From Escherichia coli (GTDB lineage Bacteria; Pseudomonadota; Gammaproteobacteria; Enterobacterales; Enterobacteriaceae), in NCBI RefSeq assembly GCF_003334255.1, contig NZ_QOWU01000002.1: 64,000 nt of DNA; one strand, 5' to 3'. Shown piece after piece: positions 11,959 through 18,641 of the stretch; the stretch's first letter is position 1, and every line of letters starts with the position of its first letter. The position numbers and the translations under genes are program-made. Below the pieces are notes generated by a model. That model did no database searches. It saw nothing but the letters and a program-made list of their open reading frames with translations, and had not been told where the DNA came from.

Positions 11959-14463
11959 ATGTCACAAACTATCGACCTGACCCTGGACGGCCTGTCCTGC
12001 GGTCACTGCGTTAAACGCGTGAAAGAAAGTCTTGAACAGCGTCCGGATGTTGAGCAGGCGGATGTGTCTATCACTGAAGCGCACGTTACCGGGACTGCCA
12101 GTGCAGAACAGCTGATCGAAACCATCAAACAAGCGGGTTATGACGCATCTGTAAGCCACCCAAAGGCTAAACCGCTGGCGGAGTCATCAATCCCGTCGGA
12201 AGCACTGACAGCGGTTTCTGAGGCGCTTCCGGCAGCGACCGCCGATGACGATGACAGCCAGCAGTTGCTGCTGAGCGGCATGAGCTGCGCCAGCTGTGTC
12301 ACCCGCGTACAAAATGCGCTGCAAAGCGTACCGGGCGTCACTCAGGCACGGGTAAACCTGGCGGAGCGTACTGCGCTGGTGATGGGCAGTGCCTCCCCAC
12401 AAGATTTAGTGCAGGCGGTGGAAAAAGCGGGCTACGGCGCGGAAGCGATTGAAGATGACGCTAAACGCCGCGAGCGCCAGCAAGAAACCGCCGTCGCTAC
12501 GATGAAGCGCTTCCGCTGGCAGGCAATTGTCGCACTGGCGGTGGGTATCCCGGTGATGGTCTGGGGGATGATCGGCGATAACATGATGGTCACCGCTGAC
12601 AACCGCAGCCTGTGGTTGGTTATCGGCCTGATAACCCTGGCAGTGATGGTTTTCGCCGGCGGCCATTTTTACCGCAGTGCATGGAAAAGCCTGCTGAACG
12701 GTGCGGCGACGATGGATACGCTGGTGGCGCTGGGTACTGGCGTGGCGTGGCTCTATTCGATGAGCGTCAACCTGTGGCCGCAGTGGTTCCCGATGGAAGC
12801 GCGACATCTTTATTACGAAGCCAGCGCGATGATTATCGGTCTGATCAATCTCGGCCATATGCTGGAAGCGCGCGCACGCCAGCGTTCTTCTAAGGCGCTG
12901 GAAAAGTTACTCGATTTAACCCCGCCGACGGCACGCCTGGTTACTGACGAAGGTGAAAAAAGCGTGCCTCTGGCAGAAGTGCAGCCAGGTATGTTGCTGC
13001 GCCTGACGACCGGCGATCGCGTGCCGGTAGATGGCGAGATTACCCAGGGCGAAGCATGGCTGGATGAAGCGATGCTGACGGGCGAACCAATCCCGCAGCA
13101 AAAAGGCGAAGGCGATAGCGTCCATGCCGGGACAGTGGTACAGGACGGCAGTGTGCTGTTTCGTGCCAGTGCGGTTGGCAGCCATACTACGCTGTCACGA
13201 ATCATTCGCATGGTGCGCCAGGCCCAGAGCAGCAAGCCAGAAATCGGTCAGCTGGCGGATAAAATCTCAGCCGTATTTGTGCCGGTAGTGGTGGTTATTG
13301 CGCTTGTCAGTGCGGCAATCTGGTATTTCTTTGGTCCGGCACCGCAGATTGTCTATACCCTGGTGATTGCCACCACGGTACTGATTATTGCCTGTCCGTG
13401 TGCGCTGGGGCTGGCGACGCCGATGTCGATTATTTCCGGCGTCGGGCGGGCGGCTGAGTTTGGCGTGCTGGTGCGGGACGCTGACGCGCTGCAACGCGCC
13501 AGTACACTCGACACTGTAGTGTTCGATAAAACCGGGACGCTGACTGAAGGGAAGCCGCAGGTTGTCGCAGTGAAAACATTTGCTGATGTTGATGAAGCGC
13601 AGGCATTGCGTCTGGCGGCGGCACTGGAGCAAGGTTCCAGCCATCCGCTGGCACGAGCGATCCTCGATAAAGCAGGTGATATGCAGCTACCGCAGGTCAA
13701 CGGTTTCCGCACATTGCGCGGGCTGGGCGTGAGCGGTGAAGCTGAAGGTCATGCGTTATTGCTGGGCAATCAGGCGCTGTTAAATGAGCAACAGGTTGGT
13801 ACCAAAGCTATCGAAGCGGAGATTACTGCTCAGGCATCGCAAGGGGCAACGCCTGTGCTGCTGGCGGTTGACGGGAAAGCGGTAGCCCTGCTGGCAGTAC
13901 GCGATCCGTTGCGTAGTGATAGCGTGGCGGCGCTGCAACGCCTGCATAAAGCGGGATATCGTCTGGTGATGTTGACCGGGGATAACCCAACCACCGCCAA
14001 TGCGATCGCCAAAGAAGCAGGGATTGATGAGGTGATCGCCGGGGTGCTGCCGGACGGTAAAGCCGAAGCGATCAAACATCTGCAAAGTGAAGGACGTCAG
14101 GTGGCAATGGTGGGCGACGGCATTAACGACGCGCCAGCGCTGGCTCAGGCGGATGTCGGCATTGCGATGGGTGGCGGCAGTGATGTTGCCATTGAAACCG
14201 CGGCGATTACCCTGATGCGCCATAGCCTGATGGGCGTTGCGGATGCGCTCGCTATTTCCCGCGCAACGCTGCACAACATGAAGCAGAACCTGCTCGGTGC
14301 GTTTATCTACAACAGTATCGGTATTCCGGTCGCCGCCGGTATTTTGTGGCCGTTCACTGGAACACTGCTTAACCCGGTAGTTGCCGGAGCGGCAATGGCG
14401 CTCTCGTCGATTACCGTAGTGAGTAACGCCAACCGGTTGCTGCGGTTTAAACCGAAGGAATAA
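11959..14463 (+). CDS. copA: Cu(I)-exporting P1B-type ATPase
   Basis: 834-aa ORF with two N-terminal metal-binding motifs (GLSCGHC, GMSCASC), CPC, DKTGT. Confidence 0.96.
12159..12165 (+). other. copA: Programmed -1 ribosomal frameshift slippery heptamer C CCA AAG in copA (would yield ~70-aa CopA(Z) ending ...HPKG)
   Basis: CCCAAAG in frame X XXY YYZ at codons 68-69; -1 frame reads CCC AAA GGC TAA; known mechanism from literature. Confidence 0.7.
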
Positions 14464-14518
14464 GTACATCATTGCGGATGCGCTGCTTTAGGGTGGCGCA
14501 TTTGGCATCGACGCATGA

Positions 14519-14756
<238 letters not shown>

Positions 14757-14778
14757 GAGATGAAGCGATGTTTTGGCC

Positions 14779-15120
14779 TTACGCGACCTTTTTTGCACGC
14801 TCTTCACGGCGTGCCAAATATTCAGCCACTGTTTCAATCCGTCCCAATTCTTCCTGGGTGCGCATGTTGTTTTCAACTTCCCAAAGATCAACCGCCGCCT
14901 GGAGGTTTAGCCAAAAATCGACTGTGGTATCAAAAACTTTCGCCAGACGAAATGCCATCTCAGTAGTGAGTTTACGATTGTTATTGATCAGTGCACTGAC
15001 GCTATTACGATGAACATGCAGCAACTCTGCTAACTCATTGATTTTCAAATCGAGCGGTTCCAGATATTCATAGAGAAGAATATCTCCGGGTGTCGTCGGT
15101 TTTCTTGTTGCCTGTTTCAT
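14779..15120 (-). CDS. ybaQ: XRE-family HTH protein, HigA-antitoxin-like
   Basis: 113-aa frame from MKQATRK inside 131-aa track ORF; HTH region ELAELLHVHRNSVSALINN. Confidence 0.85.
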   Translation of the reverse strand: MKQATRKPTTPGDILLYEYLEPLDLKINELAELLHVHRNSVSALINNNRKLTTEMAFRLAKVFDTTVDFWLNLQAAVDLWEVENNMRTQEELGRIETVAEYLARREERAKKVA

Positions 15121-15257
15121 GGTTTTTAACTGTTGCTTCCTTGTGAATAGCGATGCAAGAACATACTGAATCATACAAACACATTAAACAAGTCTCCAAC
15201 TCCATTTGCGCCATCCCTCACCGCGCGCTAGCATGATATTTCACAAAGGGAGGTCGT

Positions 15258-16052
15258 ATGGATCTGTTGTACCGGGTAAAAACGCTTTGGGCCGCGCTGC
15301 GCGGTAATCATTACACCTGGCCTGCCATCGATATCACCCTCCCCGGCAATCGCCATTTTCATCTGATTGGCAGTATTCATATGGGTAGCCACGATATGGC
15401 TCCCCTGCCCACCCGTTTGCTCAAAAAGCTCAAAAACGCCGATGCGCTGATCGTCGAGGCGGATGTTTCCACCAGCGATACGCCTTTTGCTAATTTGCCT
15501 GCCTGCGAGGCGCTGGAAGAGCGCATTAGCGAGGAGCAACTCCAAAACCTGCAGCACATTAGCCAGGAGATGGGCATTTCTCCCTCACTCTTTTCTACCC
15601 AACCGCTGTGGCAAATCGCGATGGTTCTTCAGGCGACGCAGGCACAAAAACTGGGGCTGCGGGCAGAATACGGTATCGATTACCAGCTATTGCAGGCGGC
15701 GAAGCAACAACATAAACCCGTGATTGAACTGGAAGGGGCTGAAAACCAGATTGCCATGTTGCTCCAGCTCCCTGACAAAGGACTGGCGCTGCTGGACGAT
15801 ACGCTGACCCACTGGCATACCAACGCACGGTTGCTGCAACAAATGATGAGCTGGTGGCTGAATGCACCGCCGCAAAATAATGATATAACGCTGCCCAATA
15901 CGTTCAGTCAGTCGCTGTACGATGTGCTGATGCATCAGCGAAATCTCGCCTGGCGGGATAAATTACGCGCCATGCCGCCGGGGCGATATGTGGTCGCGGT
16001 CGGTGCACTACACCTGTATGGAGAAGGGAATTTGCCGCAAATGTTGCGCTAA
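15258..16052 (+). CDS. ybaP: TraB/GumN-family protein of unknown function
   Basis: 264-aa ORF matching recalled YbaP. Confidence 0.88.
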   Translation: MDLLYRVKTLWAALRGNHYTWPAIDITLPGNRHFHLIGSIHMGSHDMAPLPTRLLKKLKNADALIVEADVSTSDTPFANLPACEALEERISEEQLQNLQHISQEMGISPSLFSTQPLWQIAMVLQATQAQKLGLRAEYGIDYQLLQAAKQQHKPVIELEGAENQIAMLLQLPDKGLALLDDTLTHWHTNARLLQQMMSWWLNAPPQNNDITLPNTFSQSLYDVLMHQRNLAWRDKLRAMPPGRYVVAVGALHLYGEGNLPQMLR

Positions 16053-16134
16053 AAAAATGGCCAATATCGCTATTGGCCCGTCAAAGAGGAATTTCATTTT
16101 TTTATTATTATGCCGTCACTTTAAGCGACGGTGT
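16051..16134 (-). ncRNA. chiX: ChiX (MicM/SroB) small regulatory RNA
   Basis: Reverse complement reads ACACCGTCGCTTAAAGTGACGGCATAATAATAAAAAAATGAAATTCCTCTTTGACGGGCCAATAGCGATATTGGCCATTTTTTT, the recalled ChiX sequence including its terminator hairpin and U-tail. Confidence 0.9.
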
Positions 16135-16240
16135 AACTCGATTGTCGCTCAATCTCACCATCCTGCCAATACTCTTAGGCAAGATGACTCTTTTTTTTGG
16201 ACCGCCATCAGGCGTATGCTTGCTTCGTTTTTTTGTTTAA

Positions 16241-16735
<495 letters not shown>

Positions 16736-16771
16736 GCATTGTGCCGGATGCAAACATCCGGCACTTTCGGA

Positions 16772-18424
16772 TTACTGCCAGCTCACCTCACCTTTCGGTT
16801 CATAAACACTCACATCCAGCGGCGAGCTTTTCTGGATATACGCTTTCAGCACTTCGGCATCAATAAAGCCGGTATTCACATAGCCCGGTTTGTTATCAAG
16901 GCGCGGATATCCATCACCGCCGGTGGCATTGAAGTTTAATGTCGCCATACGGTAAGTTTTCGCCGGATCGACCGGTTCGCCTTTGATTTTAAGGTCGTTC
17001 AGTTTGCCGTCTTTCGCCACAAAGCTAACGTTGGCAAATTGCGGGTAGGCACCTGAATCTGGCTTCATCTGCGCGACGGCGGTCAGGTAATCAATCACCT
17101 CTTTACCGGTCATGTCGGCATACACCACCACATTGCCGAATGGCTGCACTTTCAGCACGTTTTTATAGCTGATATCGCCTGCTTCGATAGAATCACGAAT
17201 TCCGCCTCCGCTCATCACCGCAAAGTCGGCACCAGTGCGATCCATTTGGGCTGCCAGAATCAACCGCCCCATATTGGTCTGTACAAAACGCACTTTGTCA
17301 CGATCGCCTTCCAGACGACCATTGGTTTCGCCTATTTTCACTTCCAGCTGCGCTTTGCCTTTGTTCTGGAACGGTGATAACAGCGAGATCATTTGCTGGT
17401 TTTCAGCGATTTCAGGAGTGTAAAGCACGCGCTCGCTTTTCCCGTCTTCCCAGGTCACTTTCTTCTTCAGGTTCACCGGAATCAGCTGGTAGTTAACCAT
17501 TTTCATTTCGCCATTACGAAACTCAAAATCAGCCCGTCCCACGTATTTGCCCCACTCATGCGCCTGCACAATCCAGATGCCGTTTTGTTGATCTGGTTTG
17601 CATGGCGTACCCGGCACGTAATCGACCTGTTTTTTGTTTTCTGCCGCCATGCAGACCGGATCTTGCGAGTGACCACCGACGATCATCGCCAGCGATCCGG
17701 CAGGCAGCGCGCGCGCCATCTCCACATCGCCCGGTGCGTTAGAGCCGTGCTCACCATTGTCGTAATGCCCCATATGGGTCGCCGCGATAATAATGTCTGG
17801 CTTTTCTGTCTGTTGCAGCTCCTGAATCACCAGCTTCGCTTCATCGGCGGGCTTACGGAACTCAATATCGGTGAAGTTTTCTGGATTGCCTAACTTCGCT
17901 GTGTCATCCGTCGTCAGACCAATAACGGCAATTTTCAGATCCTGACGCTTAAACAGCGCCCATGGTTTAAACAGGCGCTCGCCGGTACTTTTCTGGTAGA
18001 TATTGGCAGAAAGTAACGGGAACTTGGCCCACTTTTCCTGCTGGCGTAATACGGTGAGCGGGTTATCAAATTCATGATTACCGATCGCCATCGCGTCATA
18101 GCCCACCAGATTCATACCGCGAAAATCAGGTTCGGCATCCTGTAAGTCAGACTCGGGCACGCCAGTGTTAATGTCGCCACCGGAAAGTAGCAGCACGCTA
18201 CCGCCTTCAGCCGCAACCTCTTTGCGGATACCATCCACCAGCGTTTTTTGCGCCGCCAGACCATATTCGCCATATTCATTGCGCCAAAAATGCCCATGAT
18301 GATCATTGGTATGCAGAACTGTAATTTTGTAGGTTTTATCCTGCTCATACGCCAGAGCAGTTTCACTCGCCAGTGTAAATGTGGTTAACAGTGCTAACGC
18401 CACGCCCCGCTGCAATAATTTCAT
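16772..18424 (-). CDS. ushA: Periplasmic UDP-sugar hydrolase / 5'-nucleotidase
   Basis: 550-aa ORF with signal peptide and metallophosphatase motifs (GNHEFD). Confidence 0.95.
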   Translation of the reverse strand: MKLLQRGVALALLTTFTLASETALAYEQDKTYKITVLHTNDHHGHFWRNEYGEYGLAAQKTLVDGIRKEVAAEGGSVLLLSGGDINTGVPESDLQDAEPDFRGMNLVGYDAMAIGNHEFDNPLTVLRQQEKWAKFPLLSANIYQKSTGERLFKPWALFKRQDLKIAVIGLTTDDTAKLGNPENFTDIEFRKPADEAKLVIQELQQTEKPDIIIAATHMGHYDNGEHGSNAPGDVEMARALPAGSLAMIVGGHSQDPVCMAAENKKQVDYVPGTPCKPDQQNGIWIVQAHEWGKYVGRADFEFRNGEMKMVNYQLIPVNLKKKVTWEDGKSERVLYTPEIAENQQMISLLSPFQNKGKAQLEVKIGETNGRLEGDRDKVRFVQTNMGRLILAAQMDRTGADFAVMSGGGIRDSIEAGDISYKNVLKVQPFGNVVVYADMTGKEVIDYLTAVAQMKPDSGAYPQFANVSFVAKDGKLNDLKIKGEPVDPAKTYRMATLNFNATGGDGYPRLDNKPGYVNTGFIDAEVLKAYIQKSSPLDVSVYEPKGEVSWQ

Positions 18425-18641
18425 ACTTCTCTCCCTGACCTGATTTCAACGTGTTGAAAAATAGTATGACGCGACATCATAGACAAGTCTGCGTCCGGTG
18501 AAGATAAATCTGCATCCAGATTAGAAATTCTGTATTCGGCGTTGAGACTTCCTTCAGGCGACGCATACAGGTATGTTAGTCGGGTAATAATCACAAATAA
18601 GATCATTCTTTACATCGCAACCCTGAAAAAGTGACTTTCCT

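Follow-up and report, generated by a model that had tools for sequence, protein, structure and literature searches.

The window analysed here (the whole stretch of E. coli DNA, 64 kb in length) carries ybaQ on its minus strand between copA and ybaP, and the features of this locus, in window coordinates, are as follows.

11959..14463, plus strand: copA, copper-exporting P-type ATPase, convergent downstream neighbour of ybaQ and left-hand boundary of the variable spot (open reading frame list, RefSeq)
14497..14757, no strand: three REP-type repeats with a period of 101 nt between the 3' ends of copA and ybaQ; context, outside the module (repeat analysis)
14779..15120, minus strand: ybaQ coding sequence, 113 aa plus stop, solitary HigA-family antitoxin with XRE-type helix-turn-helix (translation, TIGR02607, 2EBY, RefSeq)
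14782..14799, minus strand: C-terminal RAKKVA, the C-motif-2 ClpXP recognition signal according to the literature (PMC9775585 Table 2, PMC2907309)
14911..15075, minus strand: helix-turn-helix DNA-binding core, residues 16-70 (Pfam HTH_3, 1.6e-10)
15121..15197, minus strand: 77-bp segment specific to the toxin-less haplotype, at the position of the toxin and operator-promoter (alignments)
15198..15257, no strand: ybaP-proximal intergenic part, near-identical in all three E. coli haplotypes (three-way and pairwise alignment)
15258..16052, plus strand: ybaP, TraB/GumN family, divergent upstream neighbour of ybaQ and right-hand boundary of the variable spot (open reading frame list, RefSeq)

ybaQ converges with copA across a gap of 315 bp and diverges from ybaP across a gap of 137 bp, and from 14464 to 15500 the window is 100% identical to strain W3110 and many other strains, which makes it a K-12-type E. 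coli locus. A preliminary description of the sequence gave REP repeats and ybaP as the flanks of ybaQ, as they are, with upstream and downstream interchanged: because ybaQ is on the minus strand, the REP array lies downstream of it and the ybaP side upstream. The REP array is absent from the toxin-bearing strain MS10860, where the copA-ybaQ gap is 57 bp, and matches in other genomes are approximately 100 or 200 bp shorter; the array thus differs in length among genomes and is polymorphic in copy number, which seems to co-vary with the ybaQ haplotype.

The minus strand of 14779-15120 encodes an intact open reading frame of 113 amino acids (MKQATRKP...RAKKVA), which can be extended mechanically to an in-frame ATG at 15174 to give 131 amino acids. 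The longer form was rejected and the 113-residue start favoured because every homologue opens with M[KN]QATRKP, in agreement with both PDB entry 2EBY, the crystal structure of exactly this 113-residue protein, and the RefSeq product (WP_000806442.1, 'HigA family addiction module antitoxin'); moreover, the ATG at 15174 is inside the only -10-like hexamer (TATGAT, 15175-15170). YbaQ scores 105.3 bits (E 1.1e-30) over residues 6-84 against positions 2-80 of the 81-position antidote_HigA profile TIGR02607, an equivalog model with a curated cut-off of 47.7 bits, and its residues 16-70 match Pfam HTH_3 at 1.6e-10. These matches and the structure bear out the preliminary description of a 113-residue XRE-type helix-turn-helix protein of HigA-like type, and the profile search that it had suggested as a check places YbaQ in the HigA antitoxin family, with a helix-turn-helix of XRE/Cro-C1 type, rather than in a non-antitoxin regulator family. 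The motif HVHRN(S/T)VSAL(I/V)NNNRKLT is nearly invariant among the homologues, the antitoxin of phage D6 included, and the terminal -VA or -AA is retained in 14 of 17 aligned sequences, a degree of conservation that fits a labile antitoxin. In the literature, YbaQ is a substrate of ClpXP by way of its C-terminal RAKKVA (C-motif-2; PMC9775585 Table 2; PMC2907309), a DNA-binding protein validated by ChIP-exo in K-12 with a derivable motif (Gao et al. 2018, PMC6237786), and a solitary antitoxin in the 2007 classification by RASTA-Bacteria (PMC2374986).

HigA-family antitoxins partner RelE-fold HigB toxins encoded upstream, and the toxin of a higBA-type module is therefore to be expected on the ybaP side of ybaQ, where the 137-bp spacer leaves no room for a toxin of 100 residues. 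Searches with HigB-1, the toxin of other E. coli strains, agree: with tblastn, 12000-18500 has no match at E<=1e-3, the ybaQ-ybaP spacer and its surroundings have none even when the limits are loosened to E 10 and a word size of 2, and the whole 64 kb has chance matches only, the best of them (E 0.11) at an unrelated place. Five small open reading frames in or overlapping the flanks of ybaQ, REP-derived ones included, match no NCBIfam family. The window accordingly has no complete type II higBA module, the PF05015 toxin gene upstream of ybaQ being absent, and the preliminary observation that neither flank holds a toxin-like open reading frame is upheld.

Comparison of 5426 complete E. coli genomes distinguishes three haplotypes between copA and ybaP: ybaQ alone, ybaQ together with a gene annotated 'RelE/ParE family toxin', and neither gene. 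ybaQ is found in 4834 of the genomes (with at least 80% of its length kept in 4831), higB-1 in 1266, and the K-12-type locus in 3559 at a coverage of at least 80%; approximately two thirds of E. coli genomes have the solitary gene, a quarter the pair and a tenth the empty site, the absence of ybaQ from about 590 genomes amounting to ~11%. In strain MS10860, a 303-bp gene between ybaQ and ybaP, 35 nt upstream of ybaQ and on the same strand, encodes a protein of 100 residues that matches PF05015 (HigB-like_toxin) over its full length at 3e-32. The YbaQ protein of MS10860 has the same accession as that of K-12 (WP_000806442.1), and its gene differs from the ybaQ of the window by four substitutions, all synonymous. 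In ATCC 25922, higB-1 is a frameshifted pseudogene beside an intact ybaQ, and this locus is an intermediate stage of toxin decay.

The synteny comparison proposed in the preliminary description thus finds a toxin partner at the copA-ybaP position in 1266 of the 5426 genomes. Since YbaQ matches an antitoxin family and has a syntenic toxin partner, neither of the two outcomes that were to count against the preliminary proposal, membership of a non-antitoxin regulator family and the lack of a toxin partner at this site in any genome, was encountered.

The genomes without ybaQ (such as E. coli LCP30S3_I5, L002:2145-2512) have between copA and ybaP a 368-bp G+C-rich segment with long palindromes, e.g. 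GGGGGCGGCGGCGATTGGCCGCCCCC, which is unrelated to both ybaQ-bearing haplotypes. The K-12-type segment ushA-ybaK-ybaP-ybaQ-copA, with 100% identical YbaQ, was also found in a record filed as a plasmid (L023, NZ_CP137697.1, pEcFELIX533.1, 128.8 kb) and in the PLSDB records CP061270.1, CP099174.1 and NZ_OL790696.1. Three of these four records are 1.2-4.8 Mb long, and all of them probably represent pieces of chromosome, F-prime-like elements or replicons with a wrong label, and not a mobile ybaQ.

The toxin-bearing locus has been characterized genetically by Rousset et al. (bioRxiv 10.1101/2020.05.25.114553), who found ybaQ to be essential in 5 of 18 strains, these being B2/F strains with higB-1 upstream, and dispensable in CFT073, in which higB-1 is truncated. 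Knockdown of ybaQ in strain S88 led to strong overexpression of higB-1, and the authors, who observed that higB-1 is absent from K-12 and both genes from phylogroup D, concluded that ybaQ originally served to control higB-1 (10.1101/2020.05.25.114553).

The boundaries of the variable spot are sharp. All haplotypes are near-identical from ybaP to ...GGAGTT (15198-15257), and the two that contain ybaQ become alike again approximately 8 nt before the ybaQ ATG; between these points the window has 77 bp (15121-15197), whereas toxin-bearing strains have ~410 bp comprising the operator-promoter, higB-1 and the 35-nt spacer. The 77 bp had initially seemed to align with the higB-1 promoter and with the spacer between higB and ybaQ, but in three comparisons (p 0.40, 0.18 and 0.63) local alignments to the promoter, gene or spacer score no better than shuffled controls, for which reason no homology is claimed and a remnant of any of the three was rejected; a relationship to the haplotype lacking ybaQ was likewise rejected (p 0.31 and 0.17). 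Against the rest of the window and all fetched loci, the 77 bp match only the toxin-less Escherichia copies. They contain a single sigma-70-like site (TGGAGA-17-TATGAT, 15198 to 15170), which is no more than chance expectation, and the window lacks a Shine-Dalgarno sequence at normal distance from the ybaQ ATG, where MS10860 has AAAGG 7 nt before the ATG. As no scar or recognisable remnant of higB-1 or its promoter remains in the window, it is from the comparison of haplotypes that we infer the toxin-less state to be the product of a loss.

A conserved palindromic array, GCAC-N4-GCAC-N-GTGC-N4-GTGC, lies upstream of higB in MS10860 and in the enterobacterial loci, with a TAnnnT hexamer 2 nt beyond its end. 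In 12 loci the core of the array, GCACTTGNGCACNGTGC, matches exactly, and GCACTTGNGCACNGTGC-N4-GTGC precedes higB in MS10860, in a D6-like plasmid and in at least 11 other loci. Situated between a presumed -35 element, which was assigned by eye since a sigma-70 scan did not call the higB-1 promoter, and the -10 hexamer, the array looks like the site of an autorepressor. The same operator has no match at up to three mismatches in the 64-kb window, the regions upstream of copA and ybaP included.

Outside E. coli, a scan of species-representative genomes with exact peptide patterns, which could pass over more distant or unpaired relatives, returned 17 loci. Of these, three are toxin-less copA-ybaP loci of Escherichia, and 14 come from Trabulsiella, Citrobacter, Enterobacter, Kluyvera, Sodalis, Erwinia, E. 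albertii, two further genomes labelled Escherichia and a distant Caldilineaceae MAG. None of these 14 lies within 3 kb of copA, ybaP or ybaK, each is immediately preceded on its own strand by a HigB-1 homologue, and their flanking open reading frames vary from locus to locus, as would be expected of a mobile module. The toxin is broken and the antitoxin full length in 4 of the 14, by a stop codon in Citrobacter portucalensis (L007:2679-2981) and Citrobacter koseri (L013:2382-2690) and by a frameshift in Escherichia sp. ESNIH1 (L011:2560-2925) and Enterobacter sp. Bisph1 (L012:2653-2942); the upstream operator is intact in all four. These look like independent inactivations, and the occurrence of broken toxins beside intact antitoxins suggests that toxin decay with survival of the antitoxin is recurrent in the family, with the K-12 state as its end point.

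The toxin-less state is not confined to E. coli. Three Escherichia species representatives, for which ybaP has a pS of 0.19-0.24 relative to K-12 (0.12 in the B2 strain), share the toxin-less 137-bp intergenic region at 94-96% identity, and the presence of the haplotype in such divergent Escherichia implies that the solitary state is old or was spread by recombination. The toxin may have been lost once, long ago, or B2/F strains may have re-acquired it later; either course would account for this distribution. In the toxin-less representatives, the pN/pS of ybaQ is ~0.10-0.12; on these few substitutions (2-3 non-synonymous, 5-9 synonymous), the gene appears to be under purifying selection in the absence of a toxin in cis. 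The copA-linked solitary ybaQ of Escherichia sp. E1V33 (L009:3001-3342) is frameshifted after codon 93. This genome also contains a complete D6-type higB/higA pair on a 94.6-kb contig (L010:2627-3339), and its chromosomal ybaQ has possibly decayed in the presence of the mobile copy.

We conclude that the ybaQ of the window is, very probably, the antitoxin half of a type II higB-1/ybaQ module that has lost its toxin. In the intact module, the order is operator-promoter, higB-1 (encoding a RelE-fold toxin) and ybaQ; YbaQ presumably binds the HigB-1 toxin, and it represses the higB-1 promoter, probably through the GCAC-N4-GCAC-N-GTGC-N4-GTGC array that immediately precedes the -10 hexamer. The window has the 77 bp of unrelated sequence in place of the toxin gene and operator-promoter; ybaQ stands intact behind a region with no operator, and its product, with no cis-encoded toxin to control, would be turned over by ClpXP. 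Because this protein is identical to the one that silences higB-1 in B2/F strains, it should remain competent both as a helix-turn-helix repressor and as a neutraliser of the toxin; the ~590 genomes without ybaQ indicate that whatever it does without the toxin is dispensable.

The suggestion in the preliminary description that ybaQ is an orphan antitoxin or the remnant of a toxin-antitoxin module is therefore sustained, by HigB at the same site in 1266 of 5426 genomes and upstream of all 14 homologues elsewhere, and agrees with earlier reports (PMC2374986; 10.1101/2020.05.25.114553). Both the solitary status of YbaQ and its cognate toxin were already published, and the finding, although it holds, is therefore an ordinary one. 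The present analysis reproduces the published claims independently and adds to them the operator, the boundaries of the haplotypes and the pairing across genera. The copA-ybaP locus presents within one species a natural series of intact module, frameshifted toxin, toxin-less antitoxin and loss of both genes, and is thus a convenient system for studying why antitoxins outlive toxins.

One answer would be that YbaQ has been retained as an anti-addiction or immunity factor, which neutralises and represses related higBA modules on mobile elements, notably D6-like phage-plasmids. A higBA module is present on phage D6 (MF356679 / NC_050154), whose host on record is E. coli C600, and on about 92 E. 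coli and Salmonella plasmids with sizes of roughly 75-95 kb; in the D6-like plasmid examined, it lies among phage tail genes and shares 99.7% identity with the module of phage D6. Modules of this type are found in 76 of the 5426 complete E. coli genomes, always on plasmids. The D6-type toxin shares 80-81% identity with HigB-1 and its antitoxin ~78% with YbaQ over 105 residues, the recognition region being near-identical, and the operator of the D6-like plasmid is GCACTTGCGCACAGTGC-N4-GTGC, as upstream of higB-1.

The D6-like prophage higBA has been assumed to act in post-segregational killing (PMC6799933), and the idea that chromosomal antitoxins can act in anti-addiction is established and has been put forward for orphan antitoxins (PMC7354431). 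By analogy, YbaQ expressed from a promoter without operator might prevent the loss of such an element from killing the cell, which would be in keeping with the apparent constraint on ybaQ in the absence of a cis-encoded toxin. However, 20% divergence may suffice to insulate toxin-antitoxin pairs from one another, and D6-like elements persist in E. coli although chromosomal ybaQ is nearly universal; this persistence, together with the phd-doc system that some of them also carry (PMC6799933), implies that the selective effect of YbaQ could be small. Retention for anti-addiction is thus a tentative proposal, which we consider rather improbable, and the specific prediction that solitary YbaQ acts in trans on D6-like phage-plasmids, by binding the identical operator and neutralising a HigB of 80% identity, is somewhat more doubtful still. 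If it were true, partial immunity to D6-like addiction would extend to most E. coli and the conservation of the antitoxin after loss of the toxin would be explained; the shared operator and ~80% identity make the idea directly testable in K-12.

It is unlikely that YbaQ has been domesticated as an ordinary transcription factor that controls its own set of chromosomal targets, possibly with copA or ybaP among them. The binding of DNA with a derivable motif in K-12 ChIP-exo (PMC6237786) and a pN/pS of ~0.1 would suit such a role, and the conservation of the gene where the toxin is missing led Rousset et al. to suggest 'other functions' (10.1101/2020.05.25.114553), but the literature found names no target gene or phenotype of YbaQ apart from the supplementary target list of PMC6237786. 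Regulation of the neighbouring copper or ybaP genes, which the preliminary description had offered as an alternative, was not borne out: no operator-like site occurs in the 64-kb window, upstream of copA and ybaP included, and genomes without ybaQ retain both genes with the ybaP-proximal upstream sequence nearly unchanged.

That ybaQ is a neutral leftover, functionless once the toxin had gone and now being lost, would accord with its absence from ~11% of complete E. coli genomes, its frameshift after codon 93 in one Escherichia lineage (L009) and the want of a well-placed Shine-Dalgarno sequence that the toxin-bearing haplotype possesses, but is improbable for a gene that is kept at 80% or more of its length in 4831 of 5426 genomes, that has an intact open reading frame and a pN/pS of ~0.1 in a haplotype shared with Escherichia at a ybaP pS of ~0.2, and whose protein is produced in K-12, as its listing as a ClpXP substrate implies.

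As the toxin-less half of a higB-1/ybaQ module, the locus can be set beside several known systems. It shares with the higB-1/ybaQ module of B2/F strains the copA-ybaP site and an identical YbaQ protein, and differs from that of MS10860 in having 77 bp of unrelated sequence in place of the toxin gene, the operator-promoter and the 35-nt spacer that holds the AAAGG ribosome-binding site, and in having the three-copy REP array downstream of ybaQ. The HigBA system of D6 resembles higB-1/ybaQ in its toxin-first order, its operator and its near-identical recognition region; the D6 module, however, is complete and resides on an extrachromosomal prophage, whereas the window has the antitoxin only, on the chromosome and with no operator. 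Chromosomal CcdA of Erwinia chrysanthemi (PMC7354431), an antitoxin that likewise has a relative on a mobile element, is the functional model for the possible role of a solitary YbaQ, but belongs to another toxin-antitoxin family, still has its toxin, and has had its anti-addiction activity demonstrated experimentally, whereas that of YbaQ is putative.

Among solved structures, the nearest relatives of YbaQ after 2EBY are Coxiella VapI (3TRB), P. aeruginosa HigA (6JPI, 7CSV), P. putida GraA (6F8S, 6F8H), E. coli CFT073 HigA (2ICP) and Proteus vulgaris HigA (4MCX), all of which have the single XRE-type helix-turn-helix domain of YbaQ in a protein of about 95-125 residues; with E values of 1e-13 to 1e-6, the relationship is distant. 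Unlike these HigA-family antitoxins, YbaQ is predicted to have its own C-terminal helical extension of ~30 residues ending in the ClpXP signal, according to a linker-fused HigB-1/YbaQ model (11 paired sequences, pLDDT 77, pTM 0.69) that was used for secondary structure only, and in the genome of the window it stands without a partner.
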